The notes: generated from the sequence alone by a model not told the origin. 64,000 nt of DNA from an uncultured delta proteobacterium (GCA_963782535.1 CAWAKE010000009.1:246222-310221); one strand, 5' to 3'; positions 38,030 to 59,227 are shown, numbered from the stretch's first letter. Numbers and translations are program-made.

Positions 38030-38073
38030 GGTTGCTCCCAAGCCAATCGCCCGGCGGATAGTAGTGAGACCCG

Positions 38074-39851: not shown

Positions 39852-39884
39852 TTTGACGATCCTCCGTGCGAGGTTGGCGGCGCG

Positions 39885-40709: not shown

Positions 40710-41108
40710 GCCCCGTCGCTGATATCCTCCGTTTCACTCCGTTGCTCCATCGCGCAACGCCCCATCTACCAGCTATCGCTGGCGCGCGTGGCCGGGAAGG
40801 CAAACCTCGCCCTTTCCGCGAGAGTACGGCTTTTCGCACGAAATCATCAACCCGAACTTTTGCCCGTGCGGTTCGAAATCTTCTTGAGGCTTTTCGGTCT
40901 GAGCGAACTATGGACACGGTTTCCAGGTGATGCTTCGCGTGCCGAAGCATCGAGAGATTCCGATACTGACGCAGAACGATGCGACTCGGCTCTCCGCGCG
41001 ATTTCCATGAGGGCCCGCGCCGGATAAAACGGCGGCAGCACGGCATTCGGCGATTCAGCGCGAGCGCAGGTTCAGTTCACTGGCAATCTGGTCGTGCGAC
41101 TATCGCAC

Positions 41109-42398: not shown

Positions 42399-42952
42399 GA
42401 TTATAGACCTTGTACCCACCCGCCTCCTGACGGCCTTTCAGCGCCAGGTTGTGATTGTTGTTCTGGCGCAATAGTTCGAGATCGCTGGCGAAGAAATTGC
42501 GAAAGTGAATCGGAGCGCGTCTCTTCGCCGGCGAATCCCACAATCGAGCAACCGATGCCGTGTTGGCTTTTCGCGTCCCCTATAAGAATTATCCCTCGGA
42601 CCGGCGCCAGTCGAATGCCCTTCATTCTGCTGATGCGATTATCCCCCTGTTCGCGCCCCGCACGTCCGTCGCAGTTACTGGGGTTCCGCAGCCTGCCGAC
42701 CGGCGCCAGCGCACCGGCTGTGACCGATCCATGAGTTACCATTGCCATCGCCGAAGCCGCCGATTGCTCACACATCACCTGATAAGCAATTTTTGCTCCC
42801 GTGCGGTCCCTCGCACTGCTTACTCTCATAAGAGGTGGCTATTCGAAATTCACGCAGTAGGGTCAACGCAGGCCTTGCGCAGTTCCGGATTGTTGTAATA
42901 GATGAGCTATCGACAGATTAGTAATTGAGACGACGCTTCATAAGGAGAAATC

Positions 42953-43330
42953 ATGGCTGCCAATTGCGAAAAAGTTGTTAGCGATCTGTTCGCGGCGTGG
43001 ACCCGTCTGAACGTCGATGACGTCATGACATATTTCACCGAGGATGCCGTATGGGACAATGTCCCCATGGGCCCGGCCAAAGGGCAGGCCGCCATCCGTG
43101 AGATGACGCATGGTTTCATGAAGGATGCGAGCACGTTCAGCGCCAAGATCCTCAAGACCGCTCATGTCGACAACGTGGTCTTCAACGAGCGTGTGGACAC
43201 GATCGTTATGAAGAACGGCAAGAAGGCCGATATTCCGGTCGCTGGAATGTTCGAGCTGAATGACGCCGGCAAAATTAAAGTCTGGCGCGACTATTTCGAC
43301 CTCGGGACTTTCACCAAGCAGGTTTCCTAG
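42953..43330 (+). CDS. limonene-1,2-epoxide hydrolase family protein (LimA-like, NTF2 fold)
   Basis: 125 aa; ends ...KVWRDYFDLGTF. The WRDYFDL heptapeptide is identical to the Rhodococcus LimA active-site segment. NERVD (catalytic Arg/Asp) and DNVPM (Asn) are also present. Strong AAGGAGA RBS. Confidence 0.8.
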   Translation: MAANCEKVVSDLFAAWTRLNVDDVMTYFTEDAVWDNVPMGPAKGQAAIREMTHGFMKDASTFSAKILKTAHVDNVVFNERVDTIVMKNGKKADIPVAGMFELNDAGKIKVWRDYFDLGTFTKQVS

Positions 43331-43478
43331 GTGCGTAGTTACAGGCGGCGCGCCTGACCGCCATCTTGCTCAATCACTTGCCCTTGCCGCGCGCATTCCC
43401 ACGGTAGATGCGTACGCGTATCGATTGGTATTCCTCGTTCGGAAGTTGGCGCCGTGATACTCACGAGAAACCTGAGAG

Positions 43479-44707
43479 ATGAATCGAACTCAAGCAGAAA
43501 ACGAAAAGAGGCCGCCGGCTGATGAAGCGCGTCTGGCCGGCCGGCTTCTGATCGAGCGGGCAATAGGACTCGCTGCGGGATTGCGCGAAAGATCCGACGA
43601 AGGCACCCGCCTTCGCCGCCTGCCCGATGGAAGCTGGAATGCGTTGCTCGATTCGGGCGTGCTACGAGGGCTGCAACCGTCCCGCTGGGGCGGGGGGAAA
43701 CAAATCTCCGCGACTTTTTTACCGCGGTTTCGGAGGTCGCAAGAGCCGACGGTTCCGCCGGTTGGGTGGCCGGAATTGTCGGCGTGCATCCATGGCAACT
43801 CGCATTTTTCCCAATCGAAACCCAACAGGAAGTTTGGGGCGGCGATCCGACCGTGATGCACTCCTCGTCCTATGCCCCTACCGGGCGAGCGGAAAAGGTC
43901 AGCGGTGGATATCGGCTGAATGGGCGCTGGTCCTTTTCGACCGGTTGCGATCACTGCCAATGGGTCAATCTCGGCGCGGTCACCGGCCCAATCGAAATCG
44001 ACGGAACCCCGGTCCAGGATTTTCGCTCGTTTATGCTGCCGCGTCGCGATTATAAAATCGACGACAACTGGCGCGTCGCCGGACTCTGCGGCACCGGCAG
44101 CAAGGATATCGTGGTAGAAAATGCGTTCGTGCCTGCACACCGCAGCCAATCGCATTGGGACTACATGCTGGGACGCGAAATGCCGGGATGGGAGTTCAAT
44201 CCGGCGCCGCTCTATCGCTTGCCGTTCGCGGCAGTTTTCAATTACGCGCTGTCCGCCTCCGTCCTCGGCGCCACGCGCGGATTCCTCGATGCCTGGATTG
44301 AGAGCACCCGGCCCCGCAAACTGGGTCTCGGCGGAATAGCCAGTGAAGATCCCTTCATCCAGAAGCTCCTCTCCGAAGCCGATTACGCGATTGACGCGGG
44401 CATGCTCAAGCTCCGCCGCGACTGCGACGAGTTGATGGACGCGGGCCGCGCGAGCGTCAGCCTCTCCCTGCAACGCCGCGCGGCAATTCGCTACAACGCC
44501 TGCCGCTCGGCGCAATTGGCCGCTCGCGCAATCGACCGCCTGTTTGAGTCGAGTACCGGCAAAGCGATTTTCCTCGATCATCCGCTGCAGCGGCGCTACC
44601 AGGATATCAAGGCGATGCTCGGCCACGCTTACCTCACTGCCGACAGTCCTGCGCGCATGCACGGCGCCATCGCGCTTGGCCAACCGGTAGTCAATCCGAT
44701 GCTGTGA
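43479..44707 (+). pseudogene. ACAD-fold flavin-dependent monooxygenase (HsaA/DszC/HpaH-like), frameshifted
   Basis: N-terminal 70 aa (frame of 43479) read ..LPDGSWNALLDSGVLRGLQPSRWGGG. The continuation ETNLRDFFTAVSEVARADGSAGWVAGIVGVHPWQLAFF... to the C-terminus is in the +1 frame (track ORF 43766..44707). The break falls in the G6 run at about 43692-43697. One extra G would restore a single ~410-aa ORF. Confidence 0.6.
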
Positions 44708-45120
44708 GCGACCTCCGTTTGCGATCGCAAAGGCCGTGCGGCGTCTCCTCATAAGGTACGGCCAATAAGTGACGGCACACTCCGGACAGTGTCGATTTAC
44801 GCCCGTTCACCTTACCGAACCTGTGCTGCGGCCAAATCGGACCCCTTTGATTATCTCGCTGGCCGCCGTTTTTCGCAATCCGACGCTGGTCATTAGGGCG
44901 GCGCCTGCTCCTCGATGCGGCATCTGTCCGCCGATCCGCGCCTCCCTCTCCAAACCAGTCGCGGGTTCGCTGCGTCACCGGTAATCTTAGCGGAATTATG
45001 ATGACCGACTGGCTACGCTCGGAGCATCAGGGTAATCGTTGCACTGGCGGCCGTCGGGTTACTATTCGCAGTTAGGCCCAGGGCTGTGGCATCTCGCGCC
45101 CAGGCTGACGAGCTCGAAGA

Positions 45121-46743
45121 ATGAAGCGGGAAAGTGGAATGAATATCGGTGACGCGAACGCGGTGATTGCCGCTAACTTGAGTGGGCGCGGGCGTTTGAG
45201 TCGCGTAGCCGTGCCGCGTTGTCGGCGTTTACTCAGATCCATCGCGGTCACGGCAATACTTGTAATCGCATTAGTTGAACCCGTAAAAGTCCACGCGGCA
45301 ATCGACCTGTTAACTATCGCCGGTCAACCGGTAGTGCTGAGCGCAACCGAACAAAACCGCGAACAGGTCTGGAACTGGTTCCCTGCCACCGACCCGGCGC
45401 AGGGGCCGGATTACCAGAACCGCTATAACTTCATGGGTAGCTGGATTCGGGTCGGCCTCGGTTACCAACTCGACGGTATCAAAGCCTTCGCCGAACTGAT
45501 GAGCCCATTTCTTATAAACCTGCCGGACGATGCGATTGTCGCTCCGCCGCCGGGTAAGGTCGGACCGCAAGGGCTGCTAGGTCTCGGCGCCAACTACTAT
45601 CAACCGCATCAGAATCCGAACGACGCCAGCGTCTTTCTCAAGCAGGCCTACCTCGAATTCGGACGCAACCTGATGCCCGGCTTCAATTTCAAGGGCGGCC
45701 GCTTCGAATTATTCGACGGGCTCGAATACCTGCCTGCGGAACTCAACCCGCAGCTCAGGTGGCTGGCCACCAACCGCATCGCACAGCGGCTGATCGGTAA
45801 TTTCGGCTTCAGTGACATCATGCGATCGTTTGACGGTGCGGTCGCAACCTACGGTAACGATACGTGGCAGGCGACCGTTATGTACGGTGTCCCGACCAAG
45901 GGCGTGTTCGACCTCAACGCCATGGAAGAGGTGCGCAATATGGACGTGGCCTATGCGTCGCTCAACGCTGGGCCGAGCGCTTTTCAATCCGATCTGTGGG
46001 GCGATTCTATCGGCCGGTTCTTCTATATCTATTACAACGACAGTCGCGGGCTGGCGCTGGTGGATAATCGCAGCCTGAGCGCAACGGCGGCTACGGGACC
46101 CGTCTCGATTGACACGGTGGGCGCGGATTACGCTCGCACGCTGACCGTGGGTCCGGGCAGCGCAGACTTTCTATTGTGGGGCGCAGGACAGTTCGGGTCC
46201 TGGGGTGCGCTCAGCCAGCGCGCCTACGCGATGGTGGCTGAGACCGGATATCGGTTTACCCATGCGCCCTGGAAGCCATGGCTACGCCTTGGTTACACCA
46301 TCGGTTCAGGCGACGGTAACAACCATGACTCGACCCACGCCACCTTCTTTCAGATTCTTCCCACCGCCCGGATTTACGCGATGACACCGATTTACAATAT
46401 GATGAATATCAACGACGCTATGGCGCAGTTGATGCTCGACCCGCTCACGAATCTCCAGATCCAAAGTGCGCTCCATGGATTGTGGCTCGACGCCAAAAAG
46501 GATCGCTGGTACGCGGGCGGAGGCGCTTTCGACAACCGAATCTTTGGTTATGCTGCGCGGCCCAGCAATGGTTACGGCTATCTCGGCACCCTGGCGGATT
46601 GTCAGATGACGTGGAAGGCTAACTCGCACTTTGCGTTGCAGCTTTACTACGGTCACGTCTTTGGTGGCAGTGTAGTCGGCAGTATCTATCCCGCGGGCCG
46701 CGAGTCTGACTACGGCTTTATTCAGACAACGTGGTCCCTCTAG
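45121..46743 (+). CDS. putative outer-membrane beta-barrel protein (alginate-export/DUF1302-like)
   Basis: N-terminal signal-like hydrophobic segment (LLRSIAVTAILVIALVEPVKVHAA), Gly/Tyr/Asn-rich alternating amphipathic strands throughout, aromatic C-terminal residue (..TTWSL). Family assignment is by general resemblance only. Confidence 0.45.
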   Translation: MKRESGMNIGDANAVIAANLSGRGRLSRVAVPRCRRLLRSIAVTAILVIALVEPVKVHAAIDLLTIAGQPVVLSATEQNREQVWNWFPATDPAQGPDYQNRYNFMGSWIRVGLGYQLDGIKAFAELMSPFLINLPDDAIVAPPPGKVGPQGLLGLGANYYQPHQNPNDASVFLKQAYLEFGRNLMPGFNFKGGRFELFDGLEYLPAELNPQLRWLATNRIAQRLIGNFGFSDIMRSFDGAVATYGNDTWQATVMYGVPTKGVFDLNAMEEVRNMDVAYASLNAGPSAFQSDLWGDSIGRFFYIYYNDSRGLALVDNRSLSATAATGPVSIDTVGADYARTLTVGPGSADFLLWGAGQFGSWGALSQRAYAMVAETGYRFTHAPWKPWLRLGYTIGSGDGNNHDSTHATFFQILPTARIYAMTPIYNMMNINDAMAQLMLDPLTNLQIQSALHGLWLDAKKDRWYAGGGAFDNRIFGYAARPSNGYGYLGTLADCQMTWKANSHFALQLYYGHVFGGSVVGSIYPAGRESDYGFIQTTWSL

Positions 46744-46914
46744 CAAGGCGATGAACGCGGTTCCGAGTAGTATGAACGATCGCCTCACTCTGTATCATGG
46801 TTCGATGTGCGAATGGGCTGATGATGGCTGGACACCGGCTCAAGTGAAGTCCGAGTGCGAATTTGAGCATGAATAATCAGCGACCATGCAAGTCGTCTGC
46901 GAGATGGATTAATT

Positions 46915-47523
46915 ATGGCCAAACATAAGCATGGCGAACACGGCGGCGACGATCGGCATGGCGCACGGCAACCCGAGCGGTTCGATCCTGCCCGCGCGGC
47001 GCTGCTCGACGATCCTGCGCGCTTCGAATATTTGCCGCCGGACGAAGTATTCGCGCTGTCGGCAGCGCCGGCCGGTGGCCGCGTTGTGGATTTCGGCACC
47101 GGAACGGGAGCCTATGCAATCGAGCTTGCCAAGCGGCGGCCCGACCTTGAGGTGATTGCGCTCGACGAACAGGCGCAGATGCTCGATCTGCTGCGGGCGA
47201 AGCCAGCGGCGATAAAGCTCGCAAATCTCAGTCCGGTTCACACTGCCGAAATCGCGCGGCTGCGCGGCACCGCCGATCGGGTGCTCGCGCTCAACGTATT
47301 GCACGAGGTCGGCGATGAGGCCTTGCTTGCGCTGGCGGCTCTGCTCAAGCCCGATGGCGCGGCGCTCATCGCTGACTGGAACGCCGGCGTCGAGCGCGCG
47401 GTGGGTCCGCCGCCAGACCATGTATACACGGTCGCGGAAGCCTGTGAGCGGATCCAGCGCGCCGGCCCCCGCATCGAGAGCGAGCACATGTTGAAATATC
47501 ATTACGCACTGATCGCGCGTTAG
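46915..47523 (+). CDS. class I SAM-dependent methyltransferase (small, His-rich N-terminus)
   Basis: Motif I VVDFGTGTGAYAIELA, acidic post-I residue (ALDE), motif II/III region. N-terminus MAKHKHGEHGGDDRHG. No conserved Cys triad, so not a canonical ArsM. Confidence 0.7.
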   Translation: MAKHKHGEHGGDDRHGARQPERFDPARAALLDDPARFEYLPPDEVFALSAAPAGGRVVDFGTGTGAYAIELAKRRPDLEVIALDEQAQMLDLLRAKPAAIKLANLSPVHTAEIARLRGTADRVLALNVLHEVGDEALLALAALLKPDGAALIADWNAGVERAVGPPPDHVYTVAEACERIQRAGPRIESEHMLKYHYALIAR

Positions 47524-47681
47524 CAGTTTCAACGTTGGCCCGACCGCGGGGGACCCGGAGCGGCTCGAAGCGATGGCGATGAGCCATCGTGCGCGGAGAG
47601 GCCGGCGAAATGCCCTTCCCCGCGCAGAATCGTCGGGCTCGCCCGGGCCGGCCCGAAGCGGAAAATGCGACTGATTCCCGA

Positions 47682-48212
47682 TCAGCAGCATGCTCCCGGT
47701 TTGCGCGGTTGCGCGGTATCGTGTGAGGCCGCGGGCACGCAGCAGGGCGCGTCTGAGGCTTCGGCGGCGGAGCTTTTACGATTGTGAAGCGGGATGCAAC
47801 AAGGCTCACCGTCAGAGCGCCTCATGCTCGTATCGTTGCCAAAGATTGGCACTTCGCCGAGAGTCTGAAAGTTCTCCCAAGCAAGGCCCTGCGGGTCGAG
47901 CACCCAATATTTGTTTCCCTTGGCGTAGCAACATTCGACCTCGGTCTCTTTTAAAGCCGCGGCCCCGCTCGCCTGCTCGGCGCGCATACTCAGTTCCGCG
48001 AGTTCCGCCGAATCCTCGGCCTGAAATCCCAAGTGATTGAGGCCGGGTTGGTGACCGCGCGCTGAAATCGCAAAATTTATGCGCGGCTCCTCCAGCATCC
48101 ACTTGGCATAATCGGCTCGCACAACCGTCGGCTGGATGCCGAACAAATCGGTATAGAACTTGATACTTACTTCCAGATTTTCCACTGCAACGTGAACATG
48201 AAAGCGTTTCAT
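47682..48212 (-). CDS. ArsI/CadI-family VOC (glyoxalase-fold) metalloenzyme
   Basis: Glyoxalase-like betaalphabetabetabeta start (MKRFHVHVAVENLEVSIKFYTDLFG), vicinal cysteine pair ..ETEVECCYAKG.. at about residues 94-95, and a C-terminal tail with three more Cys pairs (EPCCIPLH, APCCVPAAS, GACC). Confidence 0.6.
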   Translation of the reverse strand: MKRFHVHVAVENLEVSIKFYTDLFGIQPTVVRADYAKWMLEEPRINFAISARGHQPGLNHLGFQAEDSAELAELSMRAEQASGAAALKETEVECCYAKGNKYWVLDPQGLAWENFQTLGEVPIFGNDTSMRRSDGEPCCIPLHNRKSSAAEASDAPCCVPAASHDTAQPRKPGACC

Positions 48213-48593
48213 AGAGGCCTCCTCATTCTTGTTTAAAGAAATCTTGCGACAGGCTCGCCGGATGCCGCCGATTGCTTAACTCGCTCGAGCTTCAAGCTTG
48301 ACTGACGCTACTTATAATTCTATAAATATAAAACTATAGAGATGTCAAGCGGGCGACCTGCAGCCGTCGCCGAAATCCGCGGCCGACGCTCAACCTGGGA
48401 CCTCTCAATACCGAAGTGTAGGGAATCCAGGCGTGGACAGTTCGTTTAGTGGTCCCACTTTGCGAGGTAAGCGAGTTTTCGTGAATCAGAGGTTAACGCA
48501 GCGTTACGTCTTGGTTTGTTTTCGGTTGAATCACGCGAACGCAAGCCTTCGAAGATTGATTTCATCAAGGCATAACTCTAGACAGGTAGAACT

Positions 48594-48974
48594 ATGAGGA
48601 AATCGAATGTCATCTCGGGGTTGAGTGCCTTAGCTCAGGAAACCCGTCTCGATATCTTCCGGCTGCTGGTGACGAGAGGGCCCGAGGGACTGCCGGCGGG
48701 TGAAATCGGCATGCGTCTTGGACAGCCCTCGCCCACGCTTTCGTTTCATTTGAATCAGCTCAGGTTCGCTGGGCTCGTGACTTCACGCCGTGAGAGCCGC
48801 TCAATTCTTTACAGCGCAAACTTCAAGGCGATGAACGATTTACTCGCTTATCTGACGGAAAACTGCTGTGGTGGACGCTCGGACTTGTGCGCTCTCGATG
48901 CGTCCGCAACTCGCGAATCAATTCCGGCCTCGATAAAAGCCACGCGTGGCAATAGGACCGACGGTAAAAAATAG
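48594..48974 (+). CDS. arsR: ArsR/SmtB-family metalloregulator
   Basis: LAQETRLDIFRLLV...EIGMRLGQPSPTLSFHLNQLRFAGLV winged-HTH core plus C-terminal Cys cluster ENCCGGRSDLC (type-2 As(III)-binding site arrangement). Divergent from the VOC gene, upstream of acr3. Confidence 0.8.
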   Translation: MRKSNVISGLSALAQETRLDIFRLLVTRGPEGLPAGEIGMRLGQPSPTLSFHLNQLRFAGLVTSRRESRSILYSANFKAMNDLLAYLTENCCGGRSDLCALDASATRESIPASIKATRGNRTDGKK

Positions 48975-49230
48975 GAGAGGGCTCAATGGCCCGTCGCGAA
49001 TTAAACTACCGGTATCGACGATGCAAAGCGCAAATTCTTTTCCCGCATCTATTCGGAACTGGAGAATCGCATAAAAATCATTGCCAGCTTGCCGATCGAT
49101 GCCCTCGACCGCCAGAAGCTGGAGAATCATGCACGCGAGATTGGCAAGGTGAAGCTTCCGAGTAAGGAAGAACGTTGAACACGCCCGTTCGCGATTTGAT
49201 AATGTCCCAACCCGCACCCAGGAGAATACC

Positions 49231-50370
49231 ATGAGCGCGATTCCGGCGAAGCCGGATACTCACATCATGAGGCGGTTGTCGTTTCTCGACCGCTACCTGA
49301 CGCTTTGGATATTTTTTGCGATGGCGCTGGGAGTCGCGATGGGAAATATCCGGCCCGGCGTGAAAGGAGCATTCGATCGACTGACTATCGGAACGACATC
49401 CGTACCGATTGCGATCGGGCTGATCTTGATGATGTATCCGCCGCTGGCAAAAGTAAATTACGACGAACTCGGCGACGTGTTTCGGAACTGGAAGATTCTG
49501 GGCCTATCGCTGGTGCAGAACTGGATCATCGGTCCCGTCCTGATGTTCGCGCTCGCAGTGATCTTTCTGCGCGACCGCCCCGAGTACATGATCGGTCTCA
49601 TCATGATCGGTATCGCGCGCTGTATCGCGATGGTGATCGTGTGGAACGACCTGGCCGATGGCGACGCCGAATATTGCGCCGGATTGGTGGCCTTCAACTC
49701 AATTTTTCAAGTGCTCTTCTATTCGGTCTATGCCTTTGTCCTGATTACTGTTGTCCCGCGGTGGTTCGGGCTTGCCGGTTCGGTCGTGCACATCACGATC
49801 GGTCAAATTGCCGAAAGCGTGGCGATCTACCTCGGGATGCCTTTTGTAGCGGGATTCGCTACATGGAAGGTGCTTACCCATCGCAAGGGTAAGCTCTGGT
49901 ATCGAGAACATTTTATTCCGAAGGTGAGTCCGCTCACCTTGATTTTTCTTCTATTCACTATTGCTGTGATGTTTTCGATCAAGGGTGCTGCGATCCTTCA
50001 ACTGCCGCTCGACGTTGTACGAATCGCGGTACCGTTGCTGCTCTATTTCGCGATCATGTTCGGCGTCTCTTTCATACTGAGCATGAAGGCGGGCGCGACT
50101 TATCCGCAGACGGCTACGCTCTCATTCACTGCCGCATCCAATAATTTTGAACTCGCGATCGCGGTCGCGGTGGCGACCTTCGGCATCGACAGTGGGGCCG
50201 CCTTCGCCGCTGTCATAGGGCCATTGATCGAAGTTCCGGTAATGATCGGATTAGTTGACGTAGCGCTGTGGGCGCGGCGCAGATATTTCGCCGATTCGAC
50301 GGCCACGATCTCCGCGGCGGAATGTTGCAACACGGCGGTCGAAAGCGCCCGCCGCAACCGGCGGATATGA
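49231..50370 (+). CDS. acr3: ACR3-family arsenite efflux permease
   Basis: [21 protein letters not shown] hallmark, conserved TM4 cysteine in [17 protein letters not shown], 10 TM helices, 379 aa. Confidence 0.9.
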
Positions 50371-50434
50371 GTATTCAGGTTGGTTCGCAGCCCTTATGCT
50401 GGACAACCGCGGCGTGTCGCATTACTGCTAGCTC

Positions 50435-50728
50435 ATGGCCATCGACAAGCACGAGTACATAGCCGCTTATGAATCGCACCACGTAGGTTATCTCGAGAGC
50501 TTCGGCGATTACGAAATGGCCGCGCAGTTCCTTCATGGCTGGACCACTGACGTGCATACGTGGCCGATCTGCATCTACGACAGTGCCGACAACCACTTAT
50601 GGCTATGGTGTGGATATAGGACGCTTGATATCAGCCGCGAATCGGCACTCGAAGACGCCCGCGCAATTCTCCGGCTCGGAGCAGATCATCAATTCAGCAA
50701 GATCGAAACAATGGCCGAGAATTTGTGA
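50435..50728 (+). CDS. hypothetical protein (orphan, lower GC)
   Basis: 97-aa ORF MAIDKHEYIAAYESHHVGYLESFGDYEMAAQFLHGWTTDVHTWPICIYDS... No recognisable domain. Lies between acr3 and the IS5 left end. Confidence 0.3.
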   Translation: MAIDKHEYIAAYESHHVGYLESFGDYEMAAQFLHGWTTDVHTWPICIYDSADNHLWLWCGYRTLDISRESALEDARAILRLGADHQFSKIETMAENL

Positions 50729-50759
50729 GCGATGACGATCAAGGGATAGCCGGCGTTAG

Positions 50760-51932
50760 GGAGCCTCTGCACAGGTCGTCATACAGCGGCAGTTCGACAT
50801 AGTAATGAGGATTATGAGGAGGAACGGCAGCAGCGCGCTGGGGTGATCGCTGCTGAGAAGCCATCAGGAGCATTGGTTGCCTCTGGTTCTTGTTCACAAC
50901 CCACACCAGGCCCCGGCTGGGAGCAACCGATGCCGGAGTTGGTAGAGATTGGCCAGCGCGAACATGGTTTCGGCCCGAGCCAGATTCTTGGCCAGCCCGC
51001 GATATCTAACCTTGCTGAAGCCCCACAACTGCTTGAGTACGCGGAAGGCATGCTCGCCGCAAGCGCGGGTGCGCGAACGCACCCGGTTGATCATCCGCCA
51101 GCGCTTGCTCAACGGCCGCTGCGCGGTAGGACGGCGATTGATCCGATAATGTATTCCCCGCGATTCAAGGAAGCTGCGGTCATCTTCCTTCCAATACGCC
51201 TGGTCGCCGAACACCTCGCGCTCGTACCCGTGCAAAAGCTCCGGCAGTTGGGTGACATCGGCGACCGCGGCGTCGGTCGCGGTTACGCTGTGCACGATGC
51301 CACGCTGGTCAGCCCCGATGTGCAGTTTCATCCCGAAGTGCCAGTTCTGGCCCTTACGAGTCTGCTTCATCTCGGGGTCGCGCGTCCCACTGGCGTTCTT
51401 GGTGGAACTCGGCGCCGCGATGATGGTCGCGTCCACAATCGTCCCCGAGCGCAGCAACAGGCCGCGGGTCTCGAGCAGACCGCCGATCGCGGCGAAGATT
51501 GCCTTGGTCAAATTGTGCTTCTCGAGCAGATGACGAAAACGCAGAATCGTGGTCTCATCCGGCACCGTGTCCTCGCCCAGCTCCACCTTGGCAAACCGAC
51601 GCATCGACTCACTGTCGTAGATCGCGTCCTCGGCCTGCGGGTCGGAGAGATTGAACCATTGTTGCAGGAAGTAGATGCGCAGCATCTTCTCCAGCCCCAG
51701 TGGCTGGCGCCCGTTGCCGGCTTTGGGGTAATGAGGCTCGATCAGGCGCAAAAGCCGCGCCCACGGAATCACCGCATCCATCTCGCCCAGGAATCGCTCG
51801 CGCCGGGTAACTTTGCCTTTCCCATTCCATGCCATCGATGCGAACGTCCGCTGATTCCCCATCACCGCACCTCCACTCCTGCCGCTCCCACTTATGATTT
51901 ATACCAAACCGAAACACTTGTGCAGAGGTTCC
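50760..51932 (-). mobile_element. IS5-family insertion sequence (IS5 group), intact, with 4-bp TTAG target-site duplication
   Basis: Imperfect terminal inverted repeats GGAGCCTCTGCACAGGTCGT (left, from ~50760) and GGAACCTCTGCACAAGTGTT (right, reverse complement, ending ~51932), 16 of 20 identical. Flanked by TTAG at 50756-50759 and 51933-51936. Encloses one transposase ORF. Confidence 0.8.
50894..51865 (-). CDS. IS5-family DDE transposase
   Basis: 323 aa with the IS5 signature KQTRKGQNWHFGMKLHIGADQRGIVHSVTATDAAVADVTQ...GDQAYW (DDE triad region). Confidence 0.9.
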   Translation of the reverse strand: MMGNQRTFASMAWNGKGKVTRRERFLGEMDAVIPWARLLRLIEPHYPKAGNGRQPLGLEKMLRIYFLQQWFNLSDPQAEDAIYDSESMRRFAKVELGEDTVPDETTILRFRHLLEKHNLTKAIFAAIGGLLETRGLLLRSGTIVDATIIAAPSSTKNASGTRDPEMKQTRKGQNWHFGMKLHIGADQRGIVHSVTATDAAVADVTQLPELLHGYEREVFGDQAYWKEDDRSFLESRGIHYRINRRPTAQRPLSKRWRMINRVRSRTRACGEHAFRVLKQLWGFSKVRYRGLAKNLARAETMFALANLYQLRHRLLPAGAWCGL

Positions 51933-51943
51933 TTAGTGATTGA

Positions 51944-53506
51944 CTAGGAGTCCGTCCGAGAAATTTCGCCGGTTAAGTTGATCTCCGGATTGGAGCGATT
52001 GGCTATTGATGATGCCGGTCGCCCCAGGATCCTGCGAAGCGCCGGCTGGTCGGCTGGCGACTACAAAGAGGTGCGCGTTTTGCTGCGGTATTTCTCGTGA
52101 CCGCCTGGATGACGGTTACGCATTGCAGAGCCGGTGCAACTTCAAAATGTTGTGGGTGAGACAGACCAGCGCCCACTCGCCCCGGACTTTAGCCAAGCCG
52201 CGCAAAAGAAAGCGGCGAAACCCGCGGGCCTCTTTGATCTGGCCGAAGACCGGCTCCACGATCGTTTTCCGTGTCACATAGATTGCCCGCCCCACCTTAG
52301 TCTGAAGCTTGCGTTTCATGCGGTCGACCCGCGTCGCATTGCGCGGTAACGGTCCGCGCGAGCAGGGCTGGCGGTATTCGTCATGCTTCTGCTTGCCAGT
52401 CGCGATATAGCAATCGATCGGGTCTCCAGACTGACCGAGAGCCGCCAGATACGCGAGGTTCTTCTCCGAGCAATAGCCACTGTCGGCCACGAGGCCGGTG
52501 GGTCGCTGTCCGCTCTGTTGCTCGATCACCTGGACCATCGGTTCGATTTGCTGTTTATCGTTGGCTGCCGGCGTCACGCTCTGCCCCACGATTAACTGCA
52601 ACACCGGCTCCACTGCCGCCTGCGCATTGTAGCCTTGCACCAGACCGTCGCTGCCCTGCATCAGGCGCGACTCCGGGTCGGTGAAATTGTATTGATCTTT
52701 GTCCGCGGGCTTCGCCGATTGCACTTCTGCGCGCGGCTTTCCGGCCTTCTCCGCCGACTGCCGCGCCCGCTCTTCCAGCGCCCGTTGCGCCGCGCGAATC
52801 TTCCTTAGCCGGCTCTCGCGCCGCTGCAACTCTGCGGGTAGCTCGTCGCCCCGCCGATCGGCCCCGTAGTGCGCGTCTTCGGCGGCGTCCACCGCCTCGG
52901 CCTGGGCCAGCAGTTCCCGGACCTCTGCGCGCAGTTGCCGTTGCCGCTCCTGCATCCGGCCATAGCTCATCGCTTTGTGCTTGCTGGCGTTGGCTTTCAG
53001 CTTGGTGCCGTCCAACGCCACCCGCCCCAGTTTCAGCGCTCCCGCTTCCAGCGCGATCTTCAGCACCTCTTCAAACAGCCCGGCCAGCGTCGCCAGATGG
53101 AGCTTGCGAAAATCTGCGATGGTACGGAAGTTCGGCGCGTTGCCCGCCGCCAGCACGCGAAACCCCACGTCCTCGATTAAACGCCGCTCGATGCGCCGCG
53201 AGCTAAATACCCCCACGCAATACCCATACACCAGCACCTTGGTCATCATCCGCGGATCGTAGGGCGGCTGCCCGCGTTGCTCGTCCCCATACGCCGCATC
53301 CAGCGCCGATAGGTTCAGATTGTCGACCACATCGCTGACGAAGTAGACCAGATGATTCTCGGGCAACCATTCACGCAGGCTCGGGGGAAGCAGAAACTCT
53401 TGATCCGGATGGTACGGTCGGTAGCTCTTACCCATGCCTAATTATCTACTACTCACACCCCGTTTTCTTCCTCAGTCAAATAACTATTTCTCGGACACGC
53501 TCCTAG
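51944..53506 (-). mobile_element. IS1182-family insertion sequence
   Basis: 21-bp imperfect IRs CTAGGAGTCCGTCCGAGAAAT (51944-51964) and CTAGGAGCGTGTCCGAGAAAT (reverse complement of 53486-53506), 18 of 21 identical. Encloses one 439-aa transposase gene. Begins 7 bp from the IS5 right-hand TSD. Confidence 0.7.
52116..53435 (-). CDS. IS1182-family transposase
   Basis: MGKSYRPYHPDQEFLLPPSLREWLPENHLVYFVSD N-terminus characteristic of IS1182-family transposases. Coiled-coil middle and C-terminal DDE domain (DSGYCSEKNL). Confidence 0.85.
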   Translation of the reverse strand: MGKSYRPYHPDQEFLLPPSLREWLPENHLVYFVSDVVDNLNLSALDAAYGDEQRGQPPYDPRMMTKVLVYGYCVGVFSSRRIERRLIEDVGFRVLAAGNAPNFRTIADFRKLHLATLAGLFEEVLKIALEAGALKLGRVALDGTKLKANASKHKAMSYGRMQERQRQLRAEVRELLAQAEAVDAAEDAHYGADRRGDELPAELQRRESRLRKIRAAQRALEERARQSAEKAGKPRAEVQSAKPADKDQYNFTDPESRLMQGSDGLVQGYNAQAAVEPVLQLIVGQSVTPAANDKQQIEPMVQVIEQQSGQRPTGLVADSGYCSEKNLAYLAALGQSGDPIDCYIATGKQKHDEYRQPCSRGPLPRNATRVDRMKRKLQTKVGRAIYVTRKTIVEPVFGQIKEARGFRRFLLRGLAKVRGEWALVCLTHNILKLHRLCNA

Positions 53507-53594
53507 GCCCCCGACGCGCTGTGCATCGGGGGCCTACCTCACGTGATTTCAACAACGTTCGCGATAGTAAGTCGGAAGAATTCAGATGGCGGCT

Positions 53595-54713
53595 TCAGGC
53601 GGCCACATGAGCCGTCATCGTGAGATCCGCGGGCTCCTGCAAGGGCTCGGTCTTCCAGCTCTTGACTTCGGGCATCACGTGTTTGACGAAGCATTTCAAG
53701 TTTCGCTCGGCTTCGTCGTATGGCATGCCGGCGTAGCTGAAGTTGAGCATGAAGCCGTTCGCGTCGATGGTCTCGCGGATCGTAGAGAGCTTCTCGATCA
53801 CCTGGCCCGGGGTCCCCCACGGCATCAATTTCGCAAAGTCGGCGGCCGCACCATCGATTCCGTGCTTAGCGATAAACTTGCCGACCTGACTATAGAATTC
53901 ATAACCCTTCTGACTGCCGAATTTGGACGAGGTCATTTCATAATGTTTAATCACCGTCCGGTATTGTGCGGATAGCCACTTCATCGCCTGCTCTTCGGCG
54001 CGGTCCTTGTTCTCATCGACAAACACGAAGCCTCCGCTCAGCGGTTTCGGCGCCGGTGTGGCTCCGTTAACTTCGCGCCACACGCGATGGTAGTTTTCGA
54101 AATCGACCTTTACGGCCTCCCACGGCTTCTGGGGAATGACCAGCAGACCGACGCCAAGCTTGGCCATGATCGGCATCGATTCTGGCGATACCGCGGCGGC
54201 ATAGGTGCGGCCTTTGAAGGACTTAAAAGGAAAGGGCCGAATTTCGCGGCGCGGCTGCTTGGTGTAGGCGCCGCCTTCCATGTAACCGGTTTCGAGGGCT
54301 CGCGTGATCAGCTGTGCATATTCGACGAAGAGATTCCGCCCTTCGTTTTGATCGAGGCGAAAGCCATCGTACTCGATTGGCGCAAGTCCGCGGCCGATCC
54401 CGAAGAGAAAGCGGCCGTCTGATACATGGTCGAGCATTGAGGCCTGCTCGGCGACACGAATCGGGTCATGCCAGGGGAGGACCACGACCATCGAGCCGAG
54501 CTTCACATGCTTGGTTCGCCCTGCCATGTAAGTCAGAAATTGAACGGGATCGGGACACATTGTGTAATCATCAAAATGATGTTCAATCGACCAGACGGAA
54601 TCGAAACCCAAGGGCTCGGCCATCTCGGCGAGTCGGATTTCATTGCGCCAGACCTCGCGGTCGGAGAGTTGATTATTGGGGTTTTGAAAGACTAATCCAT
54701 AACCGACGTGCAT
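53595..54713 (-). CDS. LLM-class flavin-dependent oxidoreductase
   Basis: Trimmed to MHVGYGLVFQNP; FDSVWSIEHHFDDYTMCPDPVQFL, KLGSMVVVLPWHDPIRVAEQASMLDHVSDGRFLFGIGRG. Confidence 0.8.
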   Translation of the reverse strand: MHVGYGLVFQNPNNQLSDREVWRNEIRLAEMAEPLGFDSVWSIEHHFDDYTMCPDPVQFLTYMAGRTKHVKLGSMVVVLPWHDPIRVAEQASMLDHVSDGRFLFGIGRGLAPIEYDGFRLDQNEGRNLFVEYAQLITRALETGYMEGGAYTKQPRREIRPFPFKSFKGRTYAAAVSPESMPIMAKLGVGLLVIPQKPWEAVKVDFENYHRVWREVNGATPAPKPLSGGFVFVDENKDRAEEQAMKWLSAQYRTVIKHYEMTSSKFGSQKGYEFYSQVGKFIAKHGIDGAAADFAKLMPWGTPGQVIEKLSTIRETIDANGFMLNFSYAGMPYDEAERNLKCFVKHVMPEVKSWKTEPLQEPADLTMTAHVAA

Positions 54714-54798
54714 AGTAGCCTCCTCGGGGGCAGAATTTTCCACGAAAGTTGACCGCACTCGCCACCGACAAATCTCTCAGGTTTTTATCGTCGCCATA

Positions 54799-55656
54799 TC
54801 AGAAACGGGCCTTCGGTACCGGAAGTCCCGCGATTTCCGAGCGCGCACGAAAGACGGTGCCCTTGAGATCGCGATTCTCAGTATTGTTTGCGGTAACCAC
54901 ATAGAGATCGCACATATCCGGACCGCCAAACGCGAGGCTCGTCACGGTTCGCGCTGGGATCTTGATTCGTTGGTCGAGCGTGCCGTTGCTTTTGAAGCGG
55001 ACTACTTCACCGGGACCGGCGACGACCGCAACCCAGACCCCGCCTTCCGCGTCAATCGTCAATCCATCCGGCATACCCTCGGGCAGCCGCGCAAATACGC
55101 GGCGATCACTGACGGTACGGTCCGGACGTACGTCATGCACCCAAATCGCGCGCGTGGTTGAATCGCTATGATAAAGCAGCTTGCGATCGCGGCTGAATCC
55201 AAGGCCATTAGTCACTTCCACGCCTTCCCACAATTTGGTGACTTTTCCCGGCGGATCGATCCGGAAAAGTGAACCGGGCGGAGGGGTGCTCTTGAAGTCG
55301 AACTGGTTAATGTCGCAGCCGAAGGTTCCACTCCATATACTACCTTGGTCGTCGACAGTTAGGTCATTCATGCCGAAGAGTGGTTTTCCCTCCCACTGCG
55401 CAAACAAATCGGTGATGCGTCCGCTTTTCTCATCCCAATGCGCCAGTGTCGCTCCGGTGACGATCAATCCGCCCGAAGCGTTCAAGGCGATACCGCCCAC
55501 GGACTTGCGTCCCGGTATCAGAGTTTCAATCGCGCCATCGGGACTGCGCCGGAAAACGCCACCACCGCGTATGTCGCTATAGTAAAGGCGATTTTGCTCA
55601 TCGGTCCGCGGTCCTTCGAGTAGGCCGTAGCCGGTTGCCAAGGTTTCGAATTGCAT
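54799..55656 (-). CDS. SMP-30/gluconolactonase/LRE-family six-bladed beta-propeller hydrolase
   Basis: 285 aa. EGP..D...LYYSD opening, repeated ..DG.L.. blades, PDGLTIDAEGGVWVA. Confidence 0.8.
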   Translation of the reverse strand: MQFETLATGYGLLEGPRTDEQNRLYYSDIRGGGVFRRSPDGAIETLIPGRKSVGGIALNASGGLIVTGATLAHWDEKSGRITDLFAQWEGKPLFGMNDLTVDDQGSIWSGTFGCDINQFDFKSTPPPGSLFRIDPPGKVTKLWEGVEVTNGLGFSRDRKLLYHSDSTTRAIWVHDVRPDRTVSDRRVFARLPEGMPDGLTIDAEGGVWVAVVAGPGEVVRFKSNGTLDQRIKIPARTVTSLAFGGPDMCDLYVVTANNTENRDLKGTVFRARSEIAGLPVPKARF

Positions 55657-56095
55657 AGGCCTGTTCCTTTACGCCGTCGCTAAAACTATGATTCCTGATC
55701 GGGCAAGACTCGCGATGTCGAGATCTTGCGGTACACCCCCAACGACGCCGCGAGCGAAGCCGCAGCGAGTACGCAATCTTCAATCCGTTCCGCGGGGCCG
55801 GTCACCAGCGAACCCGCGGAGTCGCCACCATAATTGTCCGAAACTTACCGCTGTTGCATTATTGACTGCAAACGGTATTGGAGACTGGGCAAAGGTGGGG
55901 ATGGGGAACCGACCCTGCGCACGCGATACGCGATATCCTTGGCGCTGGCTGTTGCGCCAATAGGGTGGTAATCAGTCACATGTCGAACCGATCGCTCGGC
56001 CCGCAATTTGGACGGAGGCTAACGGGTGGAATGGGGTTAAGCCTATTCATCGCGAATGCTCGATTGGCGCGGCGATTTAACAATGGGAGAGCAAA

Positions 56096-56881
56096 ATGAC
56101 GGAATCGAAATATGGCGACGTGTCGGTCGAGGTCAAGAACTATGTAGCGTGCGTCGAGATTCATCGGCCGCCGCACAATTTTTTCGATGTTCAACTCATC
56201 CGCGACCTCGCCACTGCGTTCAACGCGCTGGATGAGGATGCGGCGTGTCGGGCCTCTGTCCTGTGTGCTGAGGGCAAGTCATTTTGCGCAGGCGCCAATT
56301 TCGCGAATCGCAACGCTACCGGCGTCGAACCCGGCGTCGAAAAGCGCAACCCGCTCTATTCCGAAGCGGTGCGTCTGTTTGCCTGCAAGAAACCTATAGT
56401 CGGTGCAATTCAAGGTGCGGCGATCGGCGGCGGCCTCGGACTCGCGCTGGTTCCCGACTTTCGCGTTGCAGCTCCGGAGGCGCGCTTCGCCGCGAACTTT
56501 GTCAAAATTGGCTTCCATCCGGGATTCGGCCTCACTTATATCCTGCCGCGACTGATCGGCGTCCAGAAAGCCAACCTGATGTTTCTTACGGGCCGGCGCA
56601 TTTCGGGCGAGGAGGCTTTTGCATGGGGACTCGCCGATATGCTGGTCCCGGCCGATCGGCTGCGTGCGACAGCGATGGAACTCGCGGCCGAAATCGCGGA
56701 AAATGCGCCTCTGGCAGTGGTTTCAACTCGCACGACTGGCCGTCGCGGACTCAGTGAAGCAGTACAGGCACAGACCGATCTCGAGTTCGTCGAGCAAGAT
56801 CGGCTGATGCGTACCGAGGACCATCGCGAGGGAATCAAAGCCGTCGCCGAACGTCGTCCCGGACGCTTCGTTGGTAAGTGA
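56096..56881 (+). CDS. enoyl-CoA hydratase/isomerase family protein
   Basis: EIHRPPHNFF, SFCAGANFAN, AIQGAAIGGGLGLALVPDFRV crotonase motifs. Confidence 0.8.
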   Translation: MTESKYGDVSVEVKNYVACVEIHRPPHNFFDVQLIRDLATAFNALDEDAACRASVLCAEGKSFCAGANFANRNATGVEPGVEKRNPLYSEAVRLFACKKPIVGAIQGAAIGGGLGLALVPDFRVAAPEARFAANFVKIGFHPGFGLTYILPRLIGVQKANLMFLTGRRISGEEAFAWGLADMLVPADRLRATAMELAAEIAENAPLAVVSTRTTGRRGLSEAVQAQTDLEFVEQDRLMRTEDHREGIKAVAERRPGRFVGK

Positions 56882-56952
56882 CAGGCGCGCAGACAGAATC
56901 GAAGATTCAACCGGACTCATAACGCCGACACGGCGCAAGCAGGAATCGAGCA

Positions 56953-58119
56953 ATGACGAAGGTGCAGGTAGACGGCAAGTGCGACGCGCGTTTTGAGCGC
57001 ATGCGCGAGGCGTTCGTCCGGAATTTCGTCAGCCGTGGCGACGTTGGCGCCGCGGTCGCCGTGACCATCGATGGCAAAATGGCCGTTGACCTGTGGGGCG
57101 GCCACGCCGACAAAGAGCGCACGCGGCCTTGGCGGCGTGACACGATTGTGAATGTCTATTCGGCGACCAAGGGTGTTGCCGCAACCTGTTTCAATCGACT
57201 CGTCGATCAAGGTCGAGTCGATCTTGACGCACCGGTTGCGACCTATTGGCCGGAATTCGCGCAGGCCGGAAAAGAGACTATTCCAGTACGGTGGCTGTTG
57301 AGTCATCGCGCGGGCTTGCCTGCAATACGAAAAACACTGCCCTCGGATGCATTACTCAGTTGGGACATGATGACAACGGCGCTGGCGGAACAGGCACCAT
57401 GGTGGGAACCCGGCACCAGACACGGATATCACGCGCTGACCTTTGGCTATCTGGTGGGCGAGGTGGTGCGCCGGGTGAGCGGAAGGAGTCTTGGCCAGTA
57501 CTGTCGCGAGGAAATCAGCGGTCCGTTGGCGATTGACTTTCATATCGGTCTCGATGCGAGCGATGACGCGCGTTGCGCCGAGGTAATCGCGGCGCTACCA
57601 CCGCTGGCCGGAGTATCGAATCCGCTCAACGATGCGGTGACGAGCGATCCCGAGTCGATGCCGGCGAAGGCGTTGAACAATCCGGTGGGCGCGTTGAAGC
57701 TGAGTATGATCAATTCGCCAGCCTGGCGTCGCGCGGAGATTCCAGCGGCCAATGGCCACACCAACGCCCGGGCGCTCGCACGCTTTTATGGAGCGCTGGC
57801 GTGCGGCGGCGAGCTGGATGGCGTACGCATACTGAGTCCGGTCCAGGTCGAGCGGTGTTACGCGGAGGAAGCGAGCGGTATCGATGCCGTACTGTCAGTG
57901 CCGATGCGCTTTGGTCTCGGCTACCGGCTGACCCAGCCCGCGGCTCCATACGGACCGAATCCGCACACCTTCGGCCACACGGGCGCAGGCGGTTCACTTG
58001 GGTTCGCCGATCCCGACGCACGCATCGGGTTTGCTTACACGATGAATCAAATGGGATCGCAGATACTGCTCGACTCACGGGTTTCCGTACTCCTCGACGC
58101 GCTGTATTCGGCGGTATAG
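56953..58119 (+). CDS. serine hydrolase, beta-lactamase/esterase (EstB-like) family
   Basis: SxxK nucleophile motif SATKGV, later YHA and HTGAGGS elements of class-C-like serine hydrolases. 388 aa. Confidence 0.75.
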   Translation: MTKVQVDGKCDARFERMREAFVRNFVSRGDVGAAVAVTIDGKMAVDLWGGHADKERTRPWRRDTIVNVYSATKGVAATCFNRLVDQGRVDLDAPVATYWPEFAQAGKETIPVRWLLSHRAGLPAIRKTLPSDALLSWDMMTTALAEQAPWWEPGTRHGYHALTFGYLVGEVVRRVSGRSLGQYCREEISGPLAIDFHIGLDASDDARCAEVIAALPPLAGVSNPLNDAVTSDPESMPAKALNNPVGALKLSMINSPAWRRAEIPAANGHTNARALARFYGALACGGELDGVRILSPVQVERCYAEEASGIDAVLSVPMRFGLGYRLTQPAAPYGPNPHTFGHTGAGGSLGFADPDARIGFAYTMNQMGSQILLDSRVSVLLDALYSAV

Positions 58120-58178
58120 CAGGAGGTTGCAATAGCCAGTCGCGGATTGCGCAGAGCCGATCATTCAAAGTGCTTCTG

Positions 58179-59189: not shown

Positions 59190-59227
59190 CGCAGTTCTCC
59201 CGAGGAGGCAGTGATGCGGTTCATCAG

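Follow-up and report, generated by a model that had tools for sequence, protein, structure and literature searches.

Evidence for a layered history of an arsenic-resistance locus and two neighbouring insertion sequences in an uncultured bacterium, most likely of the Binataceae

The interval 46744-53540 of the 64-kb stretch of DNA analysed here (64,000 nucleotides, hereafter the window) very probably consists of three layers of differing age: an arsenic-resistance (ars) module, a gene for a 97-residue protein that is part of an LLM/SGL/crotonase block, and two insertion sequences (IS) that were added later. The original prediction had taken the interval for a single 6.8-kb resistance islet associated with IS elements, a reading that the comparison with relatives does not support. 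One syntenic relative sufficed to separate the three layers of the locus history. This relative, L008, is a metagenome contig with ~91% nucleotide identity to the window and the sole close syntenic relative compared. It carries the genes in the order AlgE–MT–arsI–arsR–acr3–97aa–LLM with no IS element, and its synteny with the window has the Rieske gene at one end and the MetE-like gene at the other.

For ACR3, for ArsI, and for the LLM protein of the flank, all named best matches come from Candidatus Binataceae, and the genome most likely belongs to this uncultured family (phylum Binatota). Domain searches identified catabolic-type genes in the flanks, encoding Rieske oxygenase, SDR, LEH, ACAD, LLM, SGL, and crotonase proteins. 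As for the interval itself, the predicted gene content and coordinates were borne out by domain and profile searches, which recovered the methyltransferase, arsI, arsR, acr3, the 97-aa ORF, and an IS5-family and an IS1182-family element. The predicted spacer after the outer-membrane protein (Alginate_exp) gene on the left also exists and is 171 bp long. On the right, an IS1182-family element indeed lies at the proposed boundary, but 53540 is too far, as the element ends at 53502 (53506 with its CTAG). The features are as follows.

46775-46834, plus strand: probable 3' remnant of a rhodanese (sulfurtransferase) gene, within the spacer between the Alginate_exp and methyltransferase genes
46915-47523, plus strand: class-I SAM-dependent methyltransferase (MT), 202 aa
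47682-48212, minus strand: arsI, ArsI/CadI-family C-As lyase, 176 aa
48290-48360, no strand: AT-rich block, conserved, between the divergent arsI and arsR genes, containing the palindrome TCTATA-N10-TATAGA
48594-48974, plus strand: arsR, ArsR/SmtB metalloregulator of the AfArsR type, 126 aa
49011-49169, plus strand: arsC 3' remnant (last ~53 codons) of the LMW-phosphatase type, found by tblastn
49231-50370, plus strand: acr3, ACR3-family arsenite efflux permease, 379 aa
50435-50728, plus strand: conserved 97-aa ORF, no family match
50760-51932, minus strand: IS5-family element, 1173 bp (50756-51936 with repeats), transposase at 50894-51865
51948-53502, minus strand: IS1182-family element, 1555 bp (51944-53506 with CTAG), transposase at 52116-53435
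53507-53533, minus strand: hairpin downstream of the LLM gene, GCCCCCGA-N11-TCGGGGGC, read from the sequence

Genes and scars of the ars module

The module, at ~46.75-50.42 kb, comprises arsI, arsR-acr3 in divergent orientation to it, an adjacent MT that is not of the ArsM type, and scars of a rhodanese gene and an arsC gene. ACR3 covers model positions 1 to 327 of the 327 in TIGR00832 and scores well above the curated cutoff (438.9 versus 282.8), and it shares 94% identity with its L008 counterpart and 87% with a protein from a Candidatus Binataceae MAG. ArsR exceeds the cutoff of the winged-helix ArsR model NF033788 (63.1 versus 55), and its best PDB match is ArsR of Acidithiobacillus ferrooxidans (6J05, E 1e-24). 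The segment LTENCCGGRSDLC pairs with LTENCCHGTRD-C of 6J05, so that the C-terminal LTENCC...C, which binds As(III) in AfArsR, is aligned in the window protein; unlike AfArsR, the latter has one extra residue between the cysteine pair and the third cysteine. These features place the protein, as far as its sequence tells, in the AfArsR type.

ArsI scores barely over the cutoff of NCBIfam NF041414 (121.2 versus 116 bits). Its best PDB match by phmmer is ArsI of Thermomonospora curvata (5C4P/5D4F, E 2.5e-20), and its vicinal cysteine pair lies in ECCYA, aligned to ACCYA of the T. curvata protein. Elsewhere in the alignment, NHLG pairs with DHLG and WE with WE, while His5 stands opposite Gln. We take the aligned residues to be organoarsenical and metal ligands of the VOC fold, as assigned from published structures. 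Together, the model score, the cysteine pair, and these presumed metal residues identify the protein as a member of the ArsI/CadI family and a putative C-As lyase.

From family membership, the AfArsR-type repressor would leave its promoter or promoters once As(III) is bound by the C-terminal cysteines, ArsI would free arsenite from methylarsenite or aromatic arsenicals by cutting their C-As bond, and ACR3 would export the arsenite. A candidate promoter or ArsR operator is the AT-rich block of ~70 nt in the arsI/arsR spacer, which has few mismatches with L008 in a spacer that is 83% identical overall. A promoter and terminator scan gave no excess over shuffled sequences, and an Rfam search over 46-54 kb gave no match.

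The spacer between arsR and acr3, 256 bp long in both the window and L008, holds the arsC remnant. When compared by tblastn with the ArsC of locus L017 (LMWPc, 172 aa), it matches residues 118-169 with 49% identity (E 5e-12). Only these residues of the 172 are recognisable, and the intact reading frame and N-terminal CX5R catalytic loop of an ArsC are absent. We regard the remnant as an apparent pseudogene scar from which the catalytic N-terminal two thirds have been deleted, and the capacity for arsenate reduction would have been lost from this locus. Substitutions relative to L008 fall 3/9/9 by codon position in the remnant, with no excess at position 3, whereas position 3 takes 64% of the substitutions in arsI, 70% in acr3, and 74% in the 97-aa gene. 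The codon-position pattern indicates purifying selection on arsI, arsR, acr3, and the 97-aa ORF and none on the arsC remnant; the intact ars genes would thus have been retained under purifying selection since the split from L008.

A second scar was sought, like the first, by comparison with ars-linked proteins from related loci. The translation LTLYHGSMCEWADDGWTPAQ from the spacer at the left edge aligns with the ars-linked rhodanese of locus L021, which has 297 residues, over its final 21 (275-295). Its Smith-Waterman score of 59 was reached by none of 1000 shuffles (mean 30, maximum 51), and the same frame and position in L008 score 44, a value reached by 7 of 1000 shuffles. The remnant is short, and its tblastn E-value, taken alone, is not significant at 0.053. 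A phmmer search of the remnant against the PDB gave nothing meaningful; the matches returned there for the short remnant peptides, a designed repeat protein and DNMT3B, were rejected as spurious, and the same peptides had no match in Pfam or NCBIfam. The rhodanese remnant probably marks the left junction of the module, directly after the Alginate_exp stop codon.

The MT matches Pfam Methyltransf_23/25/12/11 (E 1e-11 to 4e-7). In NCBIfam, no model was matched above cutoff and ArsM was absent among the matches. The protein has a single cysteine, and a tblastn search with the ArsM-like MT of L021 did not match it, although E-values up to 10 were admitted. Having neither the ArsM-type sequence nor its conserved cysteines, it appears to be a non-ArsM methyltransferase. 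Its amino acid identity to L008 is 88%, with 50% of the substitutions at codon position 3, which points to relaxed constraint. This apparent relaxation and a GC content of 0.655 set the MT apart from the ars genes. A GC3-based gene picker favoured an antisense ORF at 46909-47691 over the MT frame; we rejected it as a shadow ORF because the MT frame has the Pfam matches and an excess of substitutions at position 3.

In its shared ACR3, ArsR/SmtB regulator, and vicinal-cysteine ArsI, the module resembles chromosomal arsR-(arsC)-acr3 clusters with an accessory arsI, the C-As lyase known as ArsI in Bacillus sp. MD1 and T. curvata (5C4P). It differs from them in that arsC and the rhodanese gene, both seen in relatives, are reduced to scars, in the non-ArsM MT beside arsI, and in its host, an uncultured Binataceae lineage.

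Age of the module and its place in the family

The module would already have been present in the common ancestor with L008. Its identity to L008 is 89.5%, compared with 90.9% and 92.1% for the flanks; by segment, the module genes are 91-92% and the flanking genes 91-96% identical, the spacers 81-84% in both, and GC per gene is nearly the same in the window and L008. A different picture emerges from L012, a metagenome contig from a more distant, intermediate relative. L012 retains the genes from the MetE-like gene through the LLM-97aa pair and then diverges, and AlgE, MT, and the ars genes are absent there. Variability between the window and L012 is not confined to the ars genes but covers all of 31730-50417, or 18.7 kb.

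Across the Binataceae, ars genes occupy at least four unrelated neighbourhoods, that of the window and L008 included. L009-L011 have a lone acr3 that follows an ABC transporter. In L017-L020, arsI is divergent from rhodanese-arsR-arsC-acr3 beside ACAD genes, an arrangement that shares with the window the divergence of arsI from arsR-acr3. In L021-L022, ArsM-like MT-arsI-rhodanese occurs with gapdh-MFS-acr3. No genome in which AlgE is directly followed by LLM was found in genome and metagenome contig scans with the Alginate_exp protein, whose relatives all had <=70% amino acid identity and were not syntenic.

An unlikely alternative is that the module belongs to an ancestral, vertically inherited Binataceae core that was lost by deletion or rearrangement in lineages such as that of L012, leaving only the IS elements as accessory. 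The nearest homologues are indeed all from Binataceae, the module is bounded by no mobility gene, tRNA, or direct repeat, and it has diverged together with its flanks. Moreover, the GC content of acr3 lies under the local mean in every Binataceae locus examined, so its low GC need not imply a foreign origin. However, four unrelated neighbourhoods within one family do not fit a fixed core, the truncated rhodanese and arsC genes indicate past rearrangement at and within the module, and the difference from L012 extends over 18.7 kb, beyond the ars genes. We favour, in a weaker sense and on an older timescale than that proposed originally, the view that the module is accessory across the family, either gained or relocated in this lineage or lost in that of L012. 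The age and direction of this gain or loss rest on two comparisons, since one close and one intermediate relative were compared. The proposal that the interval stands outside the core catabolic cluster accordingly keeps its force for MT-arsI-arsR-acr3, which the L012 locus lacks, but not for the 97-aa ORF, and the catabolic array is itself not conserved.

The claim of lower GC likewise survives in part. A stretch at ~48000-50750, consisting of the 5' part of arsI, arsR, acr3, the 97-aa ORF, and spacers, has a GC content of 0.536 and contains the 2-kb segment that is poorest in GC across the 64 kb (z = -3.1 for GC and +2.7 for tetranucleotides). The whole patch, however, at 0.583, equals its flanks (left 0.601, right 0.586; window mean 0.597), and the MT and the two IS (IS5 0.606, IS1182 0.612) lie at or above the window mean. 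GC3 is low in arsR (z = -2.1) and arsI (z = -1.5), unremarkable in acr3 (z = -0.6), and high in both transposases.

The 97-residue protein and the two insertion sequences

The 97-aa protein had no match in Pfam or NCBIfam. It is 94% identical at the amino acid level to its counterpart in L008 and 76% to that in L012, where its gene is also convergent with LLM and no ars genes adjoin; homology to L012 sets in 17 bp before its start codon ATG, at 50418. Among 1.84 billion representatives, the real clusters at the 50% level number only four. The protein appears to be lineage-restricted, and its fold, although confidently predicted, seems to have no clear counterpart among solved structures. By its neighbourhood in L012, the ORF appears to belong to the conserved block on the LLM side, outside the ars module, and not to be an orphan of the patch, as had been proposed.

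The IS5-family element encodes a 323-aa DDE transposase (NF033581, 327 versus a cutoff of 140), has inverted repeats matching at 15 of 17 positions, and is flanked by TTAG at 50756-50759 and 51933-51936. IS5-group elements in ISfinder are ~1.2 kb long, with one transposase and a 4-bp YTAR-type target duplication. The window element, with 1173 bp, a single DDE transposase, inverted repeats, and a 4-bp TTAG duplication, corresponds to this group, and L008 shows the empty site. We consider it undescribed because its nearest plasmid-borne relatives, in a PLSDB search, are only ~68% identical over the transposase core.

The IS1182-family element is assigned by its size (1555 bp), its 439-aa transposase (NF033551, 358.8 versus a cutoff of 270) with DUF772 and DDE_Tnp_1_6 domains, inverted repeats matching at 14 of 17 positions, and many copies. 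Copies of the identical transposase are spread over 10 contigs, and 566 members make up its 90% cluster, those listed lying mostly on ~1.5 kb contigs; together with assembly breaks at the end of the element, these counts speak for IS activity. The PLSDB plasmid search gave no close relative of this element (~64-66% identity), and for the two IS together the matches were only about 64-71% identical and confined to the transposase cores. Neither element had a further copy elsewhere in the 64-kb window or in the fetched loci. CTAG flanks the element at 51944-51947 and 53503-53506; as it is palindromic, it could belong to the terminal repeats instead of being a target duplication. L008 has exactly 4 bp (AAAG) at this place, which favours a duplication. 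A literature search on IS1182 target duplications yielded no usable information.

The alignment with L008 is collinear, with its sole break at window positions 50763-53504. The empty site in L008 reads GGATAGCCGGCG-ATAG-TGATCGA-AAAG-GCCCCC, and the window site reads GGATAGCCGGCG-TTAG[IS5]TTAG-TGATTGA-CTAG[IS1182]CTAG-GCCCCC. Without the two IS and the second copy of either repeat, the window sequence has exactly the length of the empty site. The LLM terminator hairpin at 53507-53533 is conserved in the IS-free L008 and is native to the LLM gene, outside the IS. We infer that the two elements inserted independently, 7 bp apart, after the split from L008, and that both landed in the short stretch that separates the 3' ends of the 97-aa gene and the LLM gene, which converge there. 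In such a place they probably do no harm.

The reading in which the IS elements brought in the whole 6.8 kb, or could mobilise it, by composite or one-ended transposition is therefore very improbable. IS elements do adjoin resistance genes here, as in composite transposons and IS-bounded islets (e.g., those bounded by IS26 or IS1), the gene functions are unrelated to those of the flanks, and within the window GC is lowest, and tetranucleotide usage deviant, at 48.0-50.75 kb. However, in contrast to such islets, the two IS are of different, mutually unrelated families, lie side by side to the right of the ars genes, and have their own 4-bp repeats, and the cargo is IS-free in a relative. L008 is also the kind of relative that the original prediction had named as contrary to it, with the ars genes at the same place in identical order, equal composition, and a divergence like that of the flanks. 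L008 is unlikely to be a secondary derivative by precise excision because its ATAG and AAAG differ from the TTAG and CTAG of the window. In addition, no same-IS pair or IS ends bracket the cargo, and the 97-aa ORF of the conserved LLM block stands between acr3 and the IS elements. The left edge has no IS end or IS-end repeat, inverted repeat, integrase, or tRNA. An integrase-type genomic island finds no support either, given that no integrase is among the patch genes and the module is present in L008; the single tRNA of the window lies at 10187-10273. The IS elements neither delivered nor bracket the ars genes.

The idea that the IS mark a chimeric join of the MAG contig and that the ars-LLM adjacency is unreal can be practically dismissed: IS1182 is multi-copy and short-read (Logan) contigs from the same sample break at its end, one of them 27 bp inside, but the IS-free L008 joins both sides in the same order and orientation, and matching 4-bp repeats stand on either side of each IS.

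Significance for the Binataceae

The MT stands after a probable rhodanese remnant in the window, and its sole sizeable plasmid homologue comes after a sulfurtransferase gene, in Rubrobacter. It is a long shot that the MT belongs to an undescribed sulfurtransferase-methyltransferase pair that would work alongside ArsI, with thio-arsenicals or other species of chalcogens or metalloids as substrates, and, separately, that the 97-aa protein assists the LLM monooxygenase as a new small partner. The locus is ordinary biology. For two undescribed IS elements of uncultured Binataceae, it offers a clean empty-site comparison in which the ends and the target repeats are exact. It also serves as a correction, in that resistance genes beside IS elements and a local GC dip do not amount to IS-mediated acquisition at this locus. 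Overall, our analysis documents a typical but decaying ars module of the Binataceae, from which arsC and the rhodanese gene appear to have been lost, and it implies no new mechanism.

Gene content and a relative without insertion sequences

The interval 46744-53540 of the window had been read as one IS-associated resistance islet. An ORF listing and family scans bore out the gene list of the original prediction, as follows.

Features of the interval and its left flank
45121-46743: Alginate_exp outer-membrane protein, left flank
46915-47523, +: class-I SAM methyltransferase, 202 aa (generic Pfam matches; no NCBIfam model above cutoff)
47682-48212, -: ArsI/CadI enzyme (NF041414, 121.2 bits vs cutoff 116)
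48594-48974, +: ArsR/SmtB regulator (NF033788, 63.1 bits vs cutoff 55)
49231-50370, +: ACR3 arsenite exporter (TIGR00832, 439 bits vs cutoff 283)
50435-50728, +: 97-aa ORF (no match in family scans)
50760-51932: IS5-family element, 1173 bp (inverted repeats 15/17 matched; TTAG at both sides)
50894-51865, -: IS5-family transposase (NF033581, 327 bits vs cutoff 140)
51948-53502: IS1182-family element, 1555 bp (inverted repeats 14/17 matched; CTAG at both sides)
52116-53435, -: IS1182-family transposase (NF033551, 359 bits vs cutoff 270)

Farther left of Alginate_exp lie ACAD, LEH, PFK, SDR, Rieske oxygenase, amidohydrolase, and LigB genes, and the right flank comprises LLM, SGL, crotonase, and a beta-lactamase-family protein.

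The closest ACR3 homologue beyond the source genome (P0002, 94% identity) is encoded on a 34.6-kb JGI metagenome contig, L008, with the gene order Rieske-SDR-PFK-LEH-ACAD-AlgE-MT-ArsI-ArsR-ACR3-97aa-LLM-SGL-crotonase-beta-lactamase (AlgE, Alginate_exp; MT, methyltransferase), which is that of the window but without any IS. By blastn, two collinear blocks, L008 1-11532 against window 39248-50762 (90.2% identity) and L008 11539-18558 against window 53505-60519 (91.9%), leave window 50763-53504 as the sole structural difference. Identity is 91-92% in the module genes (methyltransferase to acr3), 91-96% in flanking genes, and 81-84% in spacers on both sides, and overall the module is 89.5% identical, with the left flank at 90.9% and the right at 92.1%; GC is nearly equal gene by gene. 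The same order and composition without IS elements are what the original prediction itself had named as a refutation of the islet.

Relative to L008, the Acyl-CoA_dh_2 gene (43640-44710) lacks 1 nt of a G-run at 43693 and so falls into two frames, which reflects a frameshift or an error of assembly; a 420-aa ORF at 43490-44752 (-), without Pfam match, is the antisense shadow of this gene. Of a catalase gene, window 60520-60830 keeps only ~135 bp and a 100-aa fragment ORF; at the matching place (18559-20653), L008 has ~2 kb containing fragments of both Catalase and Catalase-rel.

The two IS insertions

The homologous site in L008 reads GGATAGCCGGCG ATAG TGATCGA AAAG GCCCCC. Once the two elements are taken out together with a single copy of each 4-bp repeat, the window reads GGATAGCCGGCG TTAG TGATTGA CTAG GCCCCC and equals L008 in length; the elements therefore inserted independently, each as a simple insertion, with 7 bp between them. 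Both lie within the ~130-bp spacer of the convergent 97-aa and LLM genes, and the LLM terminator hairpin (53507-53533), kept in L008, adjoins the IS1182 element. The identical IS1182 transposase is present on 10 contigs and falls in a 90% cluster of 566 members (among those listed, mostly on contigs of ~1.5 kb), and the Logan contig L001 (run ERR11571143, same sample) ends at 53480, 27 bp inside the IS1182 end, all of which fits an active multi-copy IS1182 element. No further copy of either IS was found within the window or any fetched locus, and their nearest plasmid relatives are only ~64-71% identical. At the left edge of the interval, no IS end, integrase, or tRNA was found.

Borders and history of the ars module

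L012, a more distant metagenome contig (~78% nt identity) reached via its LLM protein (P0123, 89% aa), retains MetE-like-NHL-crotonase-SGL-LLM and then the 97-aa gene (76% aa), here too in convergent orientation to LLM. Alginate_exp, the methyltransferase, and the ars genes are absent at this locus, and homology to the window reaches only to 50418, within the 64 bp that separate acr3 from the 97-aa gene. The conserved pairing and this end point place the 97-aa ORF in the conserved LLM block and the right border of the module at ~50371-50417. Beyond the 97-aa gene, L012 carries five unrelated genes, then homologues of window 30.8-27.9 kb. Relative to L012, the entire 31730-50417 (18.7 kb; YCF48-like, MMPL, LigB, amidohydrolase, Rieske, SDR, PFK, LEH, ACAD, AlgE, MT, ars) is thus variable, and the "catabolic array" is a patchwork in its own right. 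PsiE stands in L012 where the window has its beta-lactamase-family gene (56953-58119). The closest Alginate_exp homologue found in metagenome contigs (L006 6292-7077; 70% aa, truncated after ~225 residues) is surrounded by genes of nitrate/nitrite assimilation in a cluster; the porin-like gene, too, thus lacks a fixed neighbourhood.

An arsC remnant and a probable rhodanese remnant lie in spacers of the module. With the ArsC of the related locus L017 as query, the final ~53 residues of an LMW-phosphatase-type ArsC are recognisable in window 49011-49169 (49% identity, E 5e-12), without the catalytic N-terminal part; codon positions in this remnant show no substitution bias against L008. The 256-bp spacer holding it is equally long in L008, and the arsC deletion is therefore older than their split. 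The 171-bp spacer that follows the Alginate_exp gene has a frame reading LTLYHGSMCEWADDGWTPAQ, which aligns to the rhodanese C-terminus of locus L021 with a score of 59 (shuffles mean 30, max 51; 0/1000 reach 59; 7/1000 for the L008 position). Alone this is weak (tblastn E 0.053), yet its position coincides exactly with the left border proposed for the module. Among plasmid homologues of the methyltransferase, the single sizeable one follows a sulfurtransferase gene, in Rubrobacter.

Related loci have their ars genes in unrelated neighbourhoods: acr3 alone behind an ABC transporter (L009-L011), rhodanese-arsR-arsC-acr3 with divergent arsI adjoining ACAD genes (L017-L020), or an ArsM-like methyltransferase-arsI-rhodanese group near gapdh-MFS-acr3 (L021-L022). 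Wherever a best match of ACR3, ArsI, or the flanking LLM is named, it belongs to Candidatus Binataceae. The ars genes appear native to this family yet mobile, or at any rate variable in position, within it. The Logan contig L003 (ERR11571143), like L001 99.97-100% identical to the window, ends inside acr3 at 49448, a break that might stem from acr3 being present twice in that genome or sample.

Overall, the observation in the original prediction holds in part, and so does its interpretation. The interval does contain an accessory ars module, but this module predates the IS elements and is independent of them. It spans only ~46.75-50.42 kb, shorter than claimed, and is compositionally distinct in part only; the remainder of the supposed single unit is a conserved small gene and two recent IS insertions.

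Composition and predicted function

The lower GC ascribed to the whole patch holds for ~48000-50750 (0.536), which includes the 2-kb stretch with the lowest GC in all 64 kb (z = -3.1) and has a deviant tetranucleotide profile (z = +2.7). It does not hold for the patch as a whole (0.583; left 0.601, right 0.586), nor for the methyltransferase (0.655) and IS elements (0.606 and 0.612), which are at or above the window mean (0.597). GC3 is low in arsR (z = -2.1) and arsI (z = -1.5), ordinary in acr3 (z = -0.6), and high in the transposases. As acr3 GC is 0.03-0.06 under the local mean in three other sets of related loci too, the dip is a property of these genes in the family and does not show recent import. 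Elsewhere in the window, GC is low in the MMPL/LigB region (33000-36500; ~0.545, z to -2.3) and high in 1-8500 (~0.64, z to +2.5), both matching the ars core in tetranucleotide deviation.

ArsR aligns with the A. ferrooxidans ArsR structure 6J05 (E 1e-24), including its C-terminal Cys-Cys...Cys motif, and ArsI with the T. curvata C-As lyase 5C4P (E 2.5e-20), including the vicinal cysteines. Third positions take 64-74% of substitutions in arsI, arsR, acr3, and the 97-aa gene, and only 50% in the methyltransferase, which is not an ArsM. Judging from these families, the module is likely a working unit in which As(III) would derepress export via ACR3, and ArsI would likely supply ACR3 by removing methyl or aryl groups from trivalent organoarsenicals; the locus has lost arsenate reduction. 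In the arsI/arsR spacer (83% identity to L008 overall), an almost invariant AT-rich block at ~48290-48360 with a TCTATA-N10-TATAGA palindrome is a candidate promoter/ArsR operator. The 158-bp spacer (GC 0.69) of the convergent methyltransferase and arsI genes contains a GC-rich palindrome, TCGGGCTCGCCCGGGCCGGCCCGA (47633-47656), which may be a bidirectional terminator.

Every component of the interval is of a well-known kind, and within those kinds the two particular IS elements and the ars arrangement of these Binataceae are members not previously described.
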